From: a virus
Direction: 5' to 3' (one strand)
Length of the DNA stretch: 64,000 nt
Virus record (IMG/VR): IMGVR_UViG_3300022902_000006
Shown piece by piece: positions 51,146-58,483 of the stretch (the first letter of the stretch is position 1; each line of letters begins with the position of its first letter). The position numbers and the translations under genes were made by a program. Under the pieces are notes generated by a model. The model was given only the letters and a program-made list of their open reading frames with translations. It ran no database searches and was not told the DNA's origin.

Positions 51146-51197
51146 GAGGCTCCTTCTTTTTTAGGGTGGTGGGGGTAGTAACAAGCAAGTGGGGCAC

Positions 51198-52524
51198 GTC
51201 ACAGATATGAAGCCTCTGTGCTGGCGTGGGAGACATTGGCCGTTGTCGCCAGTACAAGGCCCTGGCGCTGGCGTAACGACGTGTATCGCTCGTCACAAAT
51301 ACAAAGCCCCTGTGCTGGCGTAGCGTCAATCGTTTCAAGTCACAAATACTAAGCCTTTGTGCTGGCATAATGGTATCTGGCTTAGGGGCACAAATACAAA
51401 GCCTCTGCGCTGGCGTTGCCACCTATGTTGCACGTCATCAGTATAAAGCCCTGACGCTGGCCCTTAGATACGTTCAGCGTTGGGGGCACAGATATCAAGC
51501 CTCTGCGCTGGCATAAGTGCACTCCAGACCTGGGTCACGAATACGAAGCCTCCGTGTTGGCATTATCCAGGTACGTCCATCGGCGTCAGTACAAGGCCCT
51601 GACGCGGGCGTAGGAGAGAAGTCTGGATCACAGATACAAAACCTCTGCGCGGGTGTAAAGACGACTGCGAGGTCGGCGCAGAAACAAAGCCTCTGCGCTG
51701 GCGTGAAGAAACTATACAAGGCGCTACAGATACGAAGCCTCTGTATCGGCGTCAAACCAACCCATGTGCTTATCACGAGTATGAGGCCCCCGTGCTGGCA
51801 TGGAAGTAGAATCCTAGATCAAGGCGGTAGTACAAAGCCCCATCGCTGGCATTATTGATCAGGCAATTCTATCGCAGATACCAAGCCTCCGCGCTGGCGT
51901 TATCGATTTCCTCAATGGCGCAGATACAACGCCCCTGCGCTGGCACAGCATGTTCATGATGGCGGTCACAGATACAAAGCCTCTGCGCTGGCGTATACAA
52001 AGCGAAGTACGTTGTGGGTACGAAGCCCCCGCGCTGGCACAGACGTTCAAGAAGGCGTCGTCAGTACAAAGCCCCAACGTTGGTGTAGGAGAGAAGCCTG
52101 AGTCACAGATACGAAGCCTCTGTGTTGGCGCAACAGCAGGGCGGTTAATGTCGTCGGTACAACGCCCCGACGCGGGCACGGTTCCGTTTGGGGGTAGGTC
52201 GTCGGTACAACGCCCCAACGCGGGCACTGAACAAGTTGGAATTCGGTCACAGATACGAAGCCTCTGCGCTGGCATAGGGAGCTATGTCTATCGTTGTCAG
52301 TACAAAGCCCTGGCGCGGGCGTAATGCTCATGGTGGCGGTCACAGATACAAAGCCACCGTGCTGGCGTATAACATAGCGTTCATCATAGGCGCAGATACG
52401 AAGCCTTCGCGCTGGCACAGATTAGTGTAGTAGTTTCACAGGCTGCTTGTCACAGATACCAAGCCTCTGTGCGGGCACCACCAGGAGTCCCACATGGGCA
52501 CAAGTACAAAGCCCTCATGCTGGC
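51198..52524 (-). CRISPR. CRISPR array: 28 degenerate 28-nt repeats (30 nt with a conserved RY), 27 spacers
   Basis: - strand consensus (RY)GCCAG-CRCAGA-GGCTTYGTA-TCTGYG-AC; spacers 17-23 nt (one 32); starts 4 nt after the cas stop codon. Confidence 0.9.
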
Positions 52525-52528
52525 GTTG

Positions 52529-54295
52529 TTATGCATTTTTCGTGTGGCGCTTTGCCCACTTCGCTTGGCGGGGTGCGGTATTTACGGCGTAATCCTTGAC
52601 CTTGGTGGGCACAGCTTCCTTAGCCCCCTGCTGGTGTTCGTCCCAGCGAAGCAGCAGGTTGTGCGCTGCGTTAGCGTCCTGATCCCAGTTTGCCTGGCAC
52701 TCGCTGCATGTGTGCATCACCTCTTTTGAGGCGTCCCAGGGTTCTTCCGGGTGGTCGCCACACACCGCACAATCCTGTGTGGTCATCGCTGCATTCACCT
52801 CAGCGACGGCGCCGAGACGCATCGCAAACCCATTGATGAGGTTGCTACGCAGTACCGAACACGCGGCGTCCCGTTGGTACAACCGGGCAGAAGCGATCTC
52901 TCCCTTATCAGACTCGGGGAGGACGTGCCGTTGCATTACGCTCAAATCGAACTGTTCCAGGACAAGAGTGTGGTACTTCCGCGAGAGGCGAGCGGCGATG
53001 TTACGGTACTGGTCCTTGCGGCGAGCGAGGCTCTTGTCACGTTGATTTGCTTCCCAGGACAACAGGTGCTTATCCTGCTTACGCCAGTCTTCCAAGCGCG
53101 GGTAGGCCAGGGTGTCACCTGCGAAGCGGGAGTCCCGCCACGTACGTGCAAGCGCCGCTAGGCGTGCCGTTGAACGCCAAGCATGCAACGTCGTTGCAGC
53201 CTCAATCAACCAGTCAGGGAGCGACGCCCCTTGTTTCGTTTGGCGGCGCATCCACGCAGCCAGCCAATCACGCTCAATGTTGAAGTTCTTGTCACGTGTG
53301 CTGCGCAGGTCCTCGACCTTGCGGAACCCAGAGCGGACAGCCCCCTCAAGGAGGATCTCCTCCTCATATCCTTGGTTGTCACGGAAGTACGCGACACGGA
53401 GGAGTCCACTGGGACGCACACGCCACCCAATGTCCACGGCCACAGTGCCAGTGCCACATGTTTCGCGGCGCCAGCCATCAGGGAGCGACAATGTAAAGTG
53501 GACGCTCCAGCGATCCTTGCCCGCCAGGCGTTCACGCAGAACTTTGACATCCTTGATCGTGGCCACCCGAGGCAGAGGACGGTGCAGGATGAGCGGCCAG
53601 GTTGCCCAGATGGGCGTCGTTTTGCCCTGCACGGTACCAACACGCATCTTCAACTCAGAGCGCTTCGGGTTCGAACCGACGAAGATGCGCAGAAGTGTAC
53701 TGTCACAGGCTAGTGCCTCAAAACTACTCAACCCTTTTTGTATCTGTACAGCGACGGCACCATGCCCCGTCCAACGCCGAAAGTGGGGGTCCACAAACGC
53801 AGCTTTGCGTGCTGCATCCACGGCCTTCTCAATAATTAGATATGTACCCCAGTAGCAACCACAGATTGCGCGTTCTTTCCGGATAGTAGCCTGCGCACTT
53901 TCATTCACCTTGTTGATGGCTGTCTGTACCGCCGTGTCATCCTTGAGTGCAGCTTTAGCCTTGCGCAGTTCCGCACGCACTGTCTTGAGCTGCTGCCGTG
54001 CAATCTTCACACGCTTCCGTTGCTCCTTGGTGGAAGAACGTGAACGTGATGCTCTGTGTGTCGCCCGGAGATCAGCGATTGCAGCATCAACGACTGCTTT
54101 TTTCGCTGTCGCTTCTTCTTCGAGAGGTTCTACCGTCGGATGGACACCCATGATGGCGCGTACCTTCTTACGGCGGTCACGTTCAATCTCGATGAGTTTG
54201 TTGTAATACTGATGTGCCAAATGTATCTGGTCGGATACGAGATCCACGTTTTCACACGGGGGTCTAAGCCCGTAGCGATACACTAGAATGGGCAT
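52529..54295 (-). CDS. cas12m: miniature type V effector of the Cas12m (V-U1) clade, 588 aa
   Basis: GAGGAG RBS; YRYGL..P...LAH, YWGTY, RRW.G.G...VQ, LHRPLP, RuvC-I VDIGWR, RuvC-II LVLEQ, two CxxC, RuvC-III DQDANAA; adjacent array. Confidence 0.8.
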   Translation of the reverse strand: MPILVYRYGLRPPCENVDLVSDQIHLAHQYYNKLIEIERDRRKKVRAIMGVHPTVEPLEEEATAKKAVVDAAIADLRATHRASRSRSSTKEQRKRVKIARQQLKTVRAELRKAKAALKDDTAVQTAINKVNESAQATIRKERAICGCYWGTYLIIEKAVDAARKAAFVDPHFRRWTGHGAVAVQIQKGLSSFEALACDSTLLRIFVGSNPKRSELKMRVGTVQGKTTPIWATWPLILHRPLPRVATIKDVKVLRERLAGKDRWSVHFTLSLPDGWRRETCGTGTVAVDIGWRVRPSGLLRVAYFRDNQGYEEEILLEGAVRSGFRKVEDLRSTRDKNFNIERDWLAAWMRRQTKQGASLPDWLIEAATTLHAWRSTARLAALARTWRDSRFAGDTLAYPRLEDWRKQDKHLLSWEANQRDKSLARRKDQYRNIAARLSRKYHTLVLEQFDLSVMQRHVLPESDKGEIASARLYQRDAACSVLRSNLINGFAMRLGAVAEVNAAMTTQDCAVCGDHPEEPWDASKEVMHTCSECQANWDQDANAAHNLLLRWDEHQQGAKEAVPTKVKDYAVNTAPRQAKWAKRHTKNA

Positions 54296-54314
54296 GCTGC
54301 TCCTCTTTTTTAGA

Positions 54315-54773
54315 TCAGATGATTTCGTCGTCAGGGTGTCGTAGTGGGGGTTCAACGATGTGTACGGCGTGGGCGCAGTCTTGGGTGTCAACACCCAGGT
54401 TGCCACGTAGGAACATGGCGTAGCGCTCGTCAGGACCAACGGCTGTGACGTGTCGCCCTCGGCGGATCATCTGGAGGGGGTGCACCGTTTTGTAGTGGAC
54501 AGCGCAGCCTTTGGTGACTGTGTGGATGCCTCGGGTGTTCTTCATATAAACGTGGATTGAAACCCCTTCCGGGATTGGTGCATGTTGTCCGTGGCGCATC
54601 TTAGTGCAGACGTACACATGTTCGTAGATGTTGAAGAGGAGGCAGAAGCAACGGTTACAATAGCGCACACGGTACATGCGCTGCACCTTGGAGGGGAACT
54701 TCTGTTGCTGGAGGCAGGGGATTGCCAGAGCACAGTGTCCACAGGCTTTGTCGGTGGTGAGGATGGTTCTCAT
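54315..54773 (-). CDS. Cys-rich paralogue 11 (divergent)
   Basis: CGHCALAIPC...CNRC...C. Confidence 0.7.
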   Translation of the reverse strand: MRTILTTDKACGHCALAIPCLQQQKFPSKVQRMYRVRYCNRCFCLLFNIYEHVYVCTKMRHGQHAPIPEGVSIHVYMKNTRGIHTVTKGCAVHYKTVHPLQMIRRGRHVTAVGPDERYAMFLRGNLGVDTQDCAHAVHIVEPPLRHPDDEII

Positions 54774-55216
54774 GGCTTCTTTATGGGGAGGGAGAAGGCC
54801 CCTGATTGCAACGCGTGGAGCGTCTCATCGAGGAACTCTTCGTCCATGTCATGGATTGGTGTTTGGAAGTCGTACCCCCCTTTGTGCAGGATACAACTGG
54901 GGCACACTCCCGCGTTTATGTAGATGCCGAGGACAGGGTCTTTGATGCGCGTCTCAGGGGTGCCTGTGGCGTTCGCCGCAGCGACGTAGTTTGGCACACA
55001 AGAGGAGTCGGTCATGCTGCGCCGCTCACACCTGAACATCACCACCTTCTTGACTCGGGGTATGTGGGTGCGAGACTGCATTGATTCAGGTACGGGGTAG
55101 GTTTCTTTAAGGACGAAGCGTGTACACCTCACGCACAGGAAGGTTTCACTGTTGTTCATCTTGAACAACGCCCCGGAGAGGCAAGCGACGGCGAAGGGAC
55201 AGCGCTTACATTTCAT
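54770..55216 (-). CDS. Cys-rich paralogue 10
   Basis: MKCKRCPFAVAC...LCVRC...CERR...DP...CPSC. Confidence 0.85.
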   Translation of the reverse strand: MKCKRCPFAVACLSGALFKMNNSETFLCVRCTRFVLKETYPVPESMQSRTHIPRVKKVVMFRCERRSMTDSSCVPNYVAAANATGTPETRIKDPVLGIYINAGVCPSCILHKGGYDFQTPIHDMDEEFLDETLHALQSGAFSLPIKKP

Positions 55217-55590
55217 CCGATCTTCTTCCGGTGATCCTGCGCAGCGGCTTGTTGTAGTTCCTCCGACACACACGTGGAACACTTGCCCAACGGGATGTCG
55301 GTACCTGTCATTGGGTCCGTGACGTACGCAATAGTGTTTCTCGATGTAACAGCCTCGGACACTTGTTCGTGCACAAAATTGGACTCTGGGGGGCTGCGTT
55401 TCTCACAAAGGAATTCCACTATACGTTTGGGTTGTGGGATGACACGCACACACACTGTTTCCGCCACAGGGGGATTCTCAATGATGATGAGGCGGGAACA
55501 TTTAGCGCACAGACACACGTAGCTGCTGTTTATTTTGAACAGCGCCCCGGACATGCACGCAACCACGAAAGGACAGCGCTTACACTTCAT
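55213..55590 (-). CDS. Cys-rich paralogue 9
   Basis: MKCKRCPFVVAC...LCAKC...CEKR...DP...CSTC. Confidence 0.85.
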   Translation of the reverse strand: MKCKRCPFVVACMSGALFKINSSYVCLCAKCSRLIIIENPPVAETVCVRVIPQPKRIVEFLCEKRSPPESNFVHEQVSEAVTSRNTIAYVTDPMTGTDIPLGKCSTCVSEELQQAAAQDHRKKIG

Positions 55591-56041
55591 CGAGGTGCTC
55601 CACGGCGTATACCTCCTTGTCCCCAATGGCTTGGGGCACGGCGCCTTTGCATTCCTCACATTTGGTAATCTTGATGTGGCTCGTACCTCCCGGCGACATC
55701 GGGTCTATGGGCTCACCCAAGGCTCCTGATGATAATTTATCCAGGTTGAAGACGTCTACCTGGGGGATGTCGTAGATATCCAGGAACGCACGGTCCAGCT
55801 TCTCACAGTGGAGGTATCGACGCGCGGCAACGGCTACTTCTGTTTGCCATACACGCAGAGGGTTGTCGGGTGGTGACCCGGGAGCAGGGTCCACGTCGAT
55901 GAGTTCGTAGGATGTGACCTGCAACCGCGCGCACTCACGACAAAGGAGGATTGTGATGCTGCTCCCTATCACTGCGCCCACCTCTGATTGGAGCTTTCCC
56001 GCCATGCACAGCAGCACATAAGGACACCGGCTACACTTCAC
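55580..56041 (-). CDS. Cys-rich paralogue 8
   Basis: (V)KCSRCPYVLLC...LCREC...CEK...DP...CEEC. Confidence 0.85.
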   Translation of the reverse strand: MKCSRCPYVLLCMAGKLQSEVGAVIGSSITILLCRECARLQVTSYELIDVDPAPGSPPDNPLRVWQTEVAVAARRYLHCEKLDRAFLDIYDIPQVDVFNLDKLSSGALGEPIDPMSPGGTSHIKITKCEECKGAVPQAIGDKEVYAVEHLDEV

Positions 56042-56585
56042 GCCCGTCCTTTCCTTTGATCCCCCAGGGGTGCACCAGCGCTTCCATTGCCCCACTGTCC
56101 CGCGCTCGCTTGAACGCCAGCTCGTCGTCCAGGTTCACGATGCGGTAGGCGCTGAAGGCACCATGCCTGCGCTCCTCACAATTACAGCGGTTGCAAACCT
56201 GCATGCGGAGAACTGTTCCACCTACGGGGTCCACGACGTTCATTGTGATGGGCTCCGCCAAGGAAGACATGTGGTCTCCCGGGTCACCCACGGTAGATGT
56301 GGCAATACCTTTGCCTTCCGCAGTGTTCCGTACCCGATCAACAATATCCGCGTAGCTTCGCTTCTCACAGATGAGGTAGGTCAGCGTCCCATCGTAGGGC
56401 AACACACCATGAAACTGCCGATAGAATTCAACAGTGTCAGCGGGTTCATTAGGCCCCGGACCAGCCTTGGCGTGCACAAGCTCAAGGCGCCGACACCGAT
56501 AGCAGAGCGACGCAGTGCGGTCCTTGGAGTGCAGGAGCGTTCCACCGAGGCACGGCAAGACGAGAGGGCACTCTTTACATTTCAT
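56031..56585 (-). CDS. Cys-rich paralogue 7
   Basis: MKCKECPLVLPC...LCYRC...CEKR...DP...CNRC. Confidence 0.85.
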   Translation of the reverse strand: MKCKECPLVLPCLGGTLLHSKDRTASLCYRCRRLELVHAKAGPGPNEPADTVEFYRQFHGVLPYDGTLTYLICEKRSYADIVDRVRNTAEGKGIATSTVGDPGDHMSSLAEPITMNVVDPVGGTVLRMQVCNRCNCEERRHGAFSAYRIVNLDDELAFKRARDSGAMEALVHPWGIKGKDGREV

Positions 56586-57067
56586 GGCGTGTCTCCCGTG
56601 GGGACGATGATCTTTCGCAGCTCACTCTCCTCCCGCAGTCTCTCTCGGATGAGGTTGCCCCCAGCCTGCCCCACCGCTTCAAAGATGGCCACCGTCTGCT
56701 TCGCCATCATCTCTGTGATTGCAGGGTCAGTGAAGGTGACCTTCCGGGAGTCCAGGTCCTCGTGCAGCTTAATGCGGTAAGGGAGAACACGGCGGTCCTC
56801 GGGGTCACACATGGTGCAGCCCGAGACGAGCAGTGGGCCACCGTCCACAGGGTCCACGAGCTGAACACCACGACGTACCTCCGGAGCGGCGCGGTACTGG
56901 AACTGCAGCACGTCAAGGTTCCTCTTCTCACACACGAAGTGCAAGCTGCGGGGCTCCTGCACGAGTAGTTCGAGACGCCCACACTGAGGACATAGGCGCA
57001 TAACGATGGCGCTGTGGAAGGTACCCTGCATGCATGGTAGGGCGACGGGGCAGTGTTTGCATTTCAT
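56582..57067 (-). CDS. Cys-rich paralogue 6
   Basis: MKCKHCPVALPC...LCPQC...CEKR...DP...CTMC. Confidence 0.85.
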   Translation of the reverse strand: MKCKHCPVALPCMQGTFHSAIVMRLCPQCGRLELLVQEPRSLHFVCEKRNLDVLQFQYRAAPEVRRGVQLVDPVDGGPLLVSGCTMCDPEDRRVLPYRIKLHEDLDSRKVTFTDPAITEMMAKQTVAIFEAVGQAGGNLIRERLREESELRKIIVPTGDTP

Positions 57068-57624
57068 GATTTCTTCTCTTTGTCACCAAGGATGTACTCT
57101 GGTGGCACACCCGTACCTCGTATCATGAGATTGAGCGTAGCATCGTATCGCTCACGCATGGTGTTTGTCTTACGTACTTGGCGTAGTGTTTTTAGGAGCA
57201 CACTTCTTTTCTTAGCCATCTCAGCATCGGGGTCCTTTGCTGAAAAGGTGATTCGCTGCATGTCGAGGTCCTCGTACATTTCTACCACGTACAGATTGTG
57301 CCGAGGTCCGTCACACCGGATGCAAGCAGACACAGGCAGGAAACCGCCGGACACTGGGTCGACAACCTGAATGCCTCTTCCATCCTTGGGAGCATCAATA
57401 ATAGCTTGTTGCAATGTAAGCAGGTTCCTCTTCTCACACCGGAAGTACAGCGCGCGCTTTACGCGGTAAACTGGGCCGTTGAGAGCACCACGCGTTTTAA
57501 CGGGGAGCACCTCAAATAGCCCACATACTTGGCACAAGTTGATGATGACTGCGAAGGCGTGGTGATTGTCGAACCACACCCCCTGCATACACGGCAAGGC
57601 CAGGGGACAGTTTCCACACTTCAA
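57064..57624 (-). CDS. Cys-rich paralogue 5
   Basis: TTG start; KCGNCPLALPC...LCQVC...CEKR...DP...CIRC. Confidence 0.85.
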   Translation of the reverse strand: MKCGNCPLALPCMQGVWFDNHHAFAVIINLCQVCGLFEVLPVKTRGALNGPVYRVKRALYFRCEKRNLLTLQQAIIDAPKDGRGIQVVDPVSGGFLPVSACIRCDGPRHNLYVVEMYEDLDMQRITFSAKDPDAEMAKKRSVLLKTLRQVRKTNTMRERYDATLNLMIRGTGVPPEYILGDKEKKS

Positions 57625-58028
57625 AACAAAGACCCTCCTGGCCCTGCTCCTGGACCGAAAATGAGGTTGTGAACCTCGTTGATGAGTTCCGTCGCGCACT
57701 CTTCACACAGGGTTACGAGGAAGTCTTTCCCTAGAACAACAGGAACGTGACTGTACGAAAAGCGTTGCACCTCCTCCCGCTTCCTTTTCACCACGCGTCG
57801 GATGGCATTTTCGAAGGCCCCCTTGAGTTTGTTGGCAGAGTAGTTTTCACTTTGTACGCAGATAGGTAGGAGGTCCCACACCTCGTGGATCTCAGCTTGC
57901 CCCACTCGCAATACTTGCACCTTGTTACATGTTGGACACACCACGATCCCGCGCACTGGTTCCTTTCCCGCCAGACATGCTAGAGCGTGGGGGCATTTGG
58001 CACAGGCTGATGTTATTTCATGAATCAT
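57621..58028 (-). CDS. Cys-rich paralogue 4
   Basis: CAKCPHALAC...VCPTC...C...CEEC. Confidence 0.8.
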   Translation of the reverse strand: MIHEITSACAKCPHALACLAGKEPVRGIVVCPTCNKVQVLRVGQAEIHEVWDLLPICVQSENYSANKLKGAFENAIRRVVKRKREEVQRFSYSHVPVVLGKDFLVTLCEECATELINEVHNLIFGPGAGPGGSLF

Positions 58029-58483
58029 GATCCATAGCTACCGGGCCGAGACACCACCCCCACGTTCTCGTGGATGGTGCTAGGGTCGTAGCCTCGCAGA
58101 GCATCAGGGTGGTCGTCCACATCAATGTACAAGACGCGTGTGCTCCGGTTGAAGTATTTGCTCTGTCCGAAGATAGCATCACAGAGGCCACACGTTTCGT
58201 CCTCGTTCCGCTGCATCGCTGCCTTACGTACGAGCTTATACCCTGTGATGTAGGGGCGATCGGCAGGTTCCATGCTTTTGACCGGAGGGCACTCGAAGAT
58301 CCAAACGATGTCGTGTAACACCAATATCTCAGGTACCCCATTTTTCCCTGGGATACGGATGTGCCTGTCTCCACGTGGGGCAAGTACGGCGGTACGCTCA
58401 CACCCCTCGCACAGATGCATAAACCCAGGTGGCTCCCCATTCTGCATGCACGGGATAGCGAAAGGGCATCTACGACAATCCAC
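58025..58483 (-). CDS. Cys-rich paralogue 3
   Basis: GTG start; CRRCPFAIPC...LCEGC...C...CGLC. Confidence 0.8.
   Translation of the reverse strand: MDCRRCPFAIPCMQNGEPPGFMHLCEGCERTAVLAPRGDRHIRIPGKNGVPEILVLHDIVWIFECPPVKSMEPADRPYITGYKLVRKAAMQRNEDETCGLCDAIFGQSKYFNRSTRVLYIDVDDHPDALRGYDPSTIHENVGVVSRPGSYGS

Follow-up and report, generated by a model that had tools for sequence, protein, structure and literature searches.

A virus-borne type V-M locus combining a D-E-D Cas12m with a compact array of 28 dissimilar repeats: probable DNA binding without cleavage

The window, the 64,000-nucleotide stretch analyzed here, belongs to a virus record of 180,179 bp in IMG/VR (IMGVR_UViG_3300022902_000006) that is 100% complete according to CheckV and carries genes for DNA polymerase, primase, ribonucleotide reductase, thymidylate synthase, and topoisomerase, together with six tRNAs. 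The best matches of the viral DNA polymerase did not exceed 28% identity and were spread over phages of many different hosts, and a megablast search of the locus against GenBank phages returned no match. On the minus strand, the cas12m reading frame extends from an ATG at 54295 to a TAA stop at 52529-52531, its start agreeing with the N-termini of homologues, and a CRISPR array begins directly behind the stop codon (Table 1). The gene upstream of cas12m has its stop at 54315, the array is placed within a long minus-strand operon, and a scan for promoter and terminator signals found none above chance. The locus was 100% identical in two further assemblies, with the reading frame intact and the same in all three; being identical, these assemblies are uninformative on spacer turnover. 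The first-pass annotation had described the effector as unaccompanied by cas1, cas2, or cas4, and this was borne out, with no Pfam match to Cas1, Cas2, or Cas4 at E ≤ 1 across the entire record.

A near-identical start context, TAAAAAAGA(G/A)GGAGC followed by 3 nt and ATG, was observed at cas12m (54296-54315) and at the first gene after the array (51146-51165). Cysteine-rich tandem paralogues occupy positions 54315-59473 of the window, immediately upstream of cas12m. Neither these paralogues nor the two genes downstream had a tblastn match in nine related Cas12m loci, and they are therefore not conserved partners of the effector.

Table 1. Positions of the cas12m gene, the array, and the functional residues in the window
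Feature	Position	Strand	Basis or remark
cas12m gene (P0001), 588 aa	52529..54295	-	Full-length matches to PDB Cas12m sequences and AF2 model
Shine-Dalgarno sequence GAGGAG, 4 nt ahead of the cas12m ATG	54300..54305	-	Sequence
H238-R239 codons	53579..53584	-	Align with H269-R270 of MmCas12m2; nearly invariant in the homologue alignment
D288 codon, RuvC-I	53432..53434	-	Aligns with H317 of MmCas12m2 and H322 of GoCas12m
E447 codon, RuvC-II	52955..52957	-	Alignment
TNB zinc ribbon, C509/C512 ... C530/C533	52697..52771	-	Pfam PF07282, residues 495-547, E 5.8e-9; cysteine columns
D540 codon, RuvC-III	52676..52678	-	Invariant in the 59-sequence alignment
CRISPR array, 28 units, directly after the TAA stop of cas12m	51178..52528	-	Repeats, covariation, covariance model
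Sole long (32-nt) spacer, unit 2	52417..52448	-	Reading of the array

Judged by sequence comparison and a predicted structure, the window protein is a true Cas12m (type V-M, formerly V-U1) and not a TnpB, in agreement with the family first proposed for it. The best match among PDB sequences was 23vw (E 4e-75, residues 5-549 of the window protein), and UnCas12m4a, MmCas12m2, and GoCas12m were matched at E of about 1e-20. A profile of 59 homologues matched all five PDB Cas12m sequences over their full length (positions ~4-572; E 1.7e-172 to 4.4e-78), whereas TnpB, Cas12f, and Fanzor aligned over its last ~130 positions only, at E 4e-15 or weaker. The AlphaFold (AF2) model (pLDDT 91.5, pTM 0.84) gave Foldseek TM scores of 0.77 to 8hhl, 0.80 to 8pm4, and 0.75 to 8hio, against ~0.4 to TnpB and Cas12f. 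The long helices at residues 17-165 correspond in the model to the Cas12m REC coiled coil, and the model and TM scores together assign the protein the bilobed Cas12m fold with coiled-coil REC insertion, WED, RuvC, and TNB zinc ribbon.

The RuvC triad comprises D288 (VAVDIGWR), E447 (TLVLEQF), and D540 (WDQDANAAHN), so that the VDIGWR, VLEQ, and DQD motifs and the D-E-D state read initially from the sequence are indeed present. In HMMER and local alignments D288 pairs with aspartate in 23vw and UnCas12m4a and with histidine in MmCas12m2 (..ALHLGWR) and GoCas12m, and in HMMER alignments E447 and D540 occupy the columns of the second and third catalytic residues. In the model, D288 lies in strand 284-293, E447 ends strand 443-448, and D540 starts helix 539-555, which we take to be the usual RuvC positions. 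The counterparts of H238-R239 in MmCas12m2, H269 and R270, read C(-1) and a G:A pair of the crRNA handle (PMC10442227). Four clades of Cas12m have been distinguished, of which clades 3 (DED, NED) and 4 (DED, DND, NED) keep the canonical triad (PMC10442227), and the D-E-D state of the window protein falls within the range of these two clades. The first-pass annotation had further held that characterized Cas12m proteins carry H/D substitutions; this is correct for MmCas12m2 and GoCas12m only, whereas the D-E-D clades 3 and 4 had been described and four D-E-D proteins tested (PMC10442227 and PMC11013384).

The triad state was common among relatives. Of 98 homologues from a search of 5.8 billion proteins, 57 were D-E-D, and the remainder showed NED, NDD, DTD, NGD, DND, HDD, and similar states or lacked the C-terminus. 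All nine closest relatives (P0002-P0010, 45-83% identity, with P0002 at 83%) were D-E-D. In a FastTree tree the window protein was placed within a well-supported, mostly D-E-D clade of 22 members; across the tree, parsimony required the triad to change from or to D-E-D at least 12 times, and an array persists at P0024, a relative whose triad is DTD. A motif scan of IMG/VR returned 67 loci with 50 distinct readable Cas12m proteins, 39 of which were D-E-D, and at most of these viral loci an array was located directly downstream. Among 47 related viral records, 15 of them with a completeness of 90% or more, Cas1 was found in none. The contigs of seven metagenomic relatives were inspected, and in every case the gene had phage-like neighbors, whose Pfam matches included no Cas1, Cas2, or Cas4. 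A phage setting, a D-E-D triad, and missing cas1/2/4 make up the default state of virus-borne Cas12m and not a transitional form. The suggestion that the D-E-D triad marks an intermediate accordingly falls away, since a state that is held by the majority and has switched at least 12 times is no marker of an intermediate. Its retention in the nine closest relatives and in 39 of the 50 viral proteins suggests that these residues matter for something.

Two further observations were made among the relatives. A well-supported subclade of 16 Cas12m-like proteins of 499-575 aa (P0027, P0028, P0033-P0035, P0039, P0049, P0050, P0052, P0060, P0064, P0066, P0068, P0069, P0072, and P0080) is devoid of the zinc ribbon and the third RuvC motif, the first two positions being D/N and E. 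The complete viral genome IMGVR_UViG_3300032770_000005 (152,857 bp) carries two different D-E-D cas12m genes (L065 and L078) ~49 kb apart, and an array was detected behind the second gene only.

Each repeat of the window array has 28 nt, composed of GCC, N3, a 6-nt stem arm, GGC, a loop (T..GTA), the other stem arm, and AC. Four semi-conserved nucleotides (YWRY) precede each repeat on its 5' side and correspond to the last nucleotides of an 8-nt extension that the 36-nt repeats of relatives carry at their 5' end. One unit spans 60 nt, and the others recur at a period of 45-51 nt. If the repeat is taken as 28 nt, the spacers measure 17-23 nt, apart from one of 32 nt, as the initial reading had it; with YWRY counted in the repeat they measure 13-19 and 28 nt.

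All 28 repeats differ from one another, with GCC/GGC invariant and the terminal AC kept. Positions 1-3 pair with 12-14 in stem I and 6-11 with 21-26 in stem II, at the positions reported for PmCas12m, in whose handle -28 to -26 pair with -17 to -15, and close to those of MmCas12m2. Stem cells were paired in 96.8% of cases, compared with 84.3% in shuffled repeats (a value of 96.8% was reached in 0 of 500 shuffles) and 33-48% with the partner slid. In stem II each of the six pairs varied at both partners, and the G.U pairs were compatible with the minus strand only. The repeats are under selection to keep the two-stem (pseudoknot) handle of Cas12m. A covariance model of the repeat recovered exactly the 28 array copies in the genome and no solitary units elsewhere; on both strands of the 180-kb genome, examined for a tracrRNA, no further copy was found at E ≤ 0.1, a search that a diverged anti-repeat could escape.

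Spacers 4 and 12, and likewise 9 and 19, are diverged duplicates, which suggests growth of the array by duplication. The arrays of relatives have, almost without exception, periods of 71-76 nt, compared with 45-51 nt here. PmCas12m has a guide optimum of 17 nt and forms a 17-bp heteroduplex, by which measure a unit of the window array has about the length of a mature crRNA; with YWRY counted in the repeat, some guides are shorter than this optimum. A silencer tuned by guide length, as was first suggested, is not needed to explain these spacers, since 17 nt is both the reported optimum and the length of the heteroduplex. Among the features of the locus, only the array stands out, being compact and fully diversified.

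A comparable block was observed in a second phage (IMGVR_UViG_3300031965_000004, L043:3557-3925), where eight diversified short units with a period of 47-55 nt and a nearly identical repeat core lie upstream of cas12m and an ordinary array of 72-76-nt units lies downstream of the same gene. In the small array behind the DTD relative P0024 (L016:8160-8412), compensatory repeat changes were found in stem I (GCC/GGC versus GCG/CGC) and in stem II.

Spacer targets were sought at several levels. In the virus's own array-masked genome of 180 kb no spacer had a match with fewer than three mismatches, and two matches of 17-18 nt with three mismatches were at chance level. Exact scans found no match for spacers 2, 15, 22, 7, and 8 in IMG/VR, for spacers 2 and 15 in GTDB genomes, or for spacers 2 and 22 in JGI metagenomes; these negatives are weak, because such scans tolerate no mismatch. 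No spacer match of at least 15 nt was present in 710 kb of related loci, and the arrays of relatives matched this genome just within the cas12m gene itself and a tRNA. The GC content of the spacers was 0.49 compared with 0.58 for the genome, approximately 4 standard deviations lower, which fits foreign DNA or AT-rich control regions.

Taken as a virus-borne type V-M module of an effector and a 28-unit array without adaptation genes, the locus most likely serves RNA-guided binding and silencing of DNA without cleavage. In the proposed sequence of events, Cas12m itself would process the operon transcript, releasing crRNAs of ~45-50 nt that comprise a handle of 28-32 nt and a guide of 13-20 nt. 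The Cas12m-crRNA complex would bind PAM-flanked double-stranded DNA and open an R-loop of ~17 bp, and the bound complex would block transcription or replication of its target, in the host or in a competing mobile element, while the target stays uncut. The conserved acidic residues would probably hold the displaced strand through metal ions rather than act in catalysis. Binding without cleavage is favored because D-E-D relatives that have been tested do not cut double-stranded DNA and because the triad was repeatedly lost in the family. Eight Cas12m proteins have been assayed, four of them D-E-D (Ms, Ap, Tf, and Un, the last from an IMG/VR contig), and cleavage of double-stranded DNA was detected for none (PMC11013384). 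Purified MsCas12m left target DNA and RNA intact and lacked collateral activity, its D274A variant processed pre-crRNA unaffected, and TfCas12m aimed at a plasmid origin of replication caused plasmid interference by binding (PMC11013384). Conversion of the HDD triad of Cas12m2 to DED did not restore cleavage (PMC10442227). The nearest solved structure, 23vw, has D/E/D and was deposited as a DNA-binding protein. The triad also proved dispensable on the tree, given the switches counted above and the array persisting in the DTD relative P0024.

The main competing explanation is an active RNA-guided nuclease or nickase, in which D-E-D would cleave the target or displaced strand, possibly with particular guide lengths or substrates only. 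In its favor, a confident model shows the intact triad in canonical position, the nearest relatives retain it, and DNA hydrolysis by clades 3 and 4 has been raised as a possibility (PMC10442227). Against these points stand the published results just given, from the four D-E-D proteins without double-stranded DNA cleavage and the inactive MsCas12m to the HDD-to-DED conversion, as well as the repeated changes of the triad in a family whose arrays persist, and cleavage or nicking by the window protein is considered unlikely. A second question is whether the protein is a CRISPR effector at all or a transposon-associated TnpB (IS200/IS605) working with an omega RNA. Pfam and NCBIfam detect just a TnpB-type C-terminal domain in the 588-aa protein, and a GenBank relative is labeled as similar to transposase. 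IS200/IS605 TnpB proteins such as that of ISDra2 (8h1j) have the RuvC and zinc-ribbon core in common with the window protein, but they are of ~400 aa, without the REC coiled-coil insertion, and use omega RNA, whereas the window protein has 588 aa, the REC helices at 17-165, and an array (TM 0.42 between the two). Alignment with TnpB is confined to the last ~130 residues (positions ~430-565), so that grouping with IS605 TnpB, which the first-pass annotation had named among the findings that would overturn its reading, was looked for and not seen. With the C-terminal-only profile match, the TM of ~0.4, and 28 covarying repeats directly behind the gene, identity as an IS200/IS605 TnpB is refuted, and the chance that it holds is practically negligible.

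Two other accounts concern the array and leave the effector as Cas12m. The array could be a decaying relic that no longer guides the effector, as might be read from the difference of every repeat, the missing adaptation genes, the search for targets that found none, and the units that are diverged duplicates. Decay is, however, hard to reconcile with compensatory changes that keep 96.8% of stem cells paired (0 of 500 shuffles), with the retained GCC/GGC and terminal AC, with an RNA-reading H-R pair kept in the protein, and with a reading frame intact and identical in three assemblies, and this account is regarded as very improbable. Alternatively, the guides might bind the phage's own genome and time its transcription. 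The position of the array inside a long minus-strand operon, in which neither promoter nor terminator signals exceeded chance, is in keeping with such a role; the lack of own-genome matches with fewer than three mismatches, the chance level of those with three, the absence of solitary repeat units elsewhere in the genome, and the lower GC of the spacers speak against it, and self-regulation is likewise regarded as very improbable.

Beyond the preferred reading of binding and silencing without cleavage, a more speculative role of the array can tentatively be put forward. It may possibly be a hard-wired set of guides and not an immune memory, made up of 28 units of about mature-crRNA size whose repeats were individually recoded with the fold kept, perhaps against recombination or repeat-directed countermeasures, and to which new units would apparently be added by duplication and mutation. 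The D-E-D Cas12m would then be a multiplex silencer of fixed genes of the host or of rivals, and its triad might support an activity missed by published assays.

Because the combination of features is usual and the D-E-D relatives that were tested bind their DNA but leave it uncut, there is nothing out of the ordinary in the effector. Its value is mainly negative, a D-E-D phage Cas12m without cas1/2/4 being the default, and a cleavage assay on the window protein would for this reason likely repeat published negatives. Importance could lie in the array, a natural, dense, and perhaps recombination-resistant multiplex cassette with 28 different but equivalent handles and guides of 13-20 nt. It would lend itself directly to the design of compact Cas12m multiplexing and offers a case for studying the evolution of CRISPR arrays without adaptation machinery.

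In comparison with known systems, 23vw ("CRISPR-associated DNA-binding protein Cas12m") shares D-E-D, the zinc ribbon, and the approximate length with the window protein; it is bacterial, whereas the window protein is viral, and about a third of their residues are in common. Since its D and E at 316 and 469 correspond to 306 and 459 of TfCas12m plus 10, and its length to 567 plus 10, 23vw is probably TfCas12m (Thermoanaerobacterium fracticalcis, 567 aa, D306/E459/D550) with a 10-residue tag. MsCas12m (Meiothermus silvanus), ApCas12m, and UnCas12m, compared by description, have the same D-E-D triad; they work with one crRNA and no tracrRNA, do not need RuvC to process their own pre-crRNA, and leave bound DNA uncut. 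Their arrays have ordinary identical 36-nt repeats, in contrast to the window array, in which all repeats differ. As UnCas12m comes from an IMG/VR contig, a virus-derived D-E-D Cas12m has already been tested. The clade 2 proteins MmCas12m2 (8hhl and 8hio) and GoCas12m (8pm4) share with the window protein the fold (TM 0.75-0.80), the handle-reading H-R pair, and a pseudoknotted crRNA handle ending in AC; their triad is H-D-D, with H for the first D and D for the E of the window protein, at E of about 1e-20.

Phage D-E-D Cas12m with an adjacent array, as at the window locus, is also found in the myxophage MV-1, for which no cas1/2/4 was reported (bioRxiv 10.64898/2026.09.14.751636), and in Virus Rctr197k (GenBank KX853510.1, L013). 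In the latter, the gene (112351-114219) is entered as a misc_feature "similar to similar to transposase" and adjoins an annotated CRISPR repeat region, with no cas1/2/4 annotated within the 11.7-kb stretch viewed. The triad spacing of MvCas12m, 158/92, is close to the 159/93 of the window protein. The arrays differ: in MV-1 a single consensus repeat is combined with 8 spacers, and in Rctr197k the units measure ~72 nt, compared with 28 units of 45-51 nt in the window array, each with a repeat of its own.
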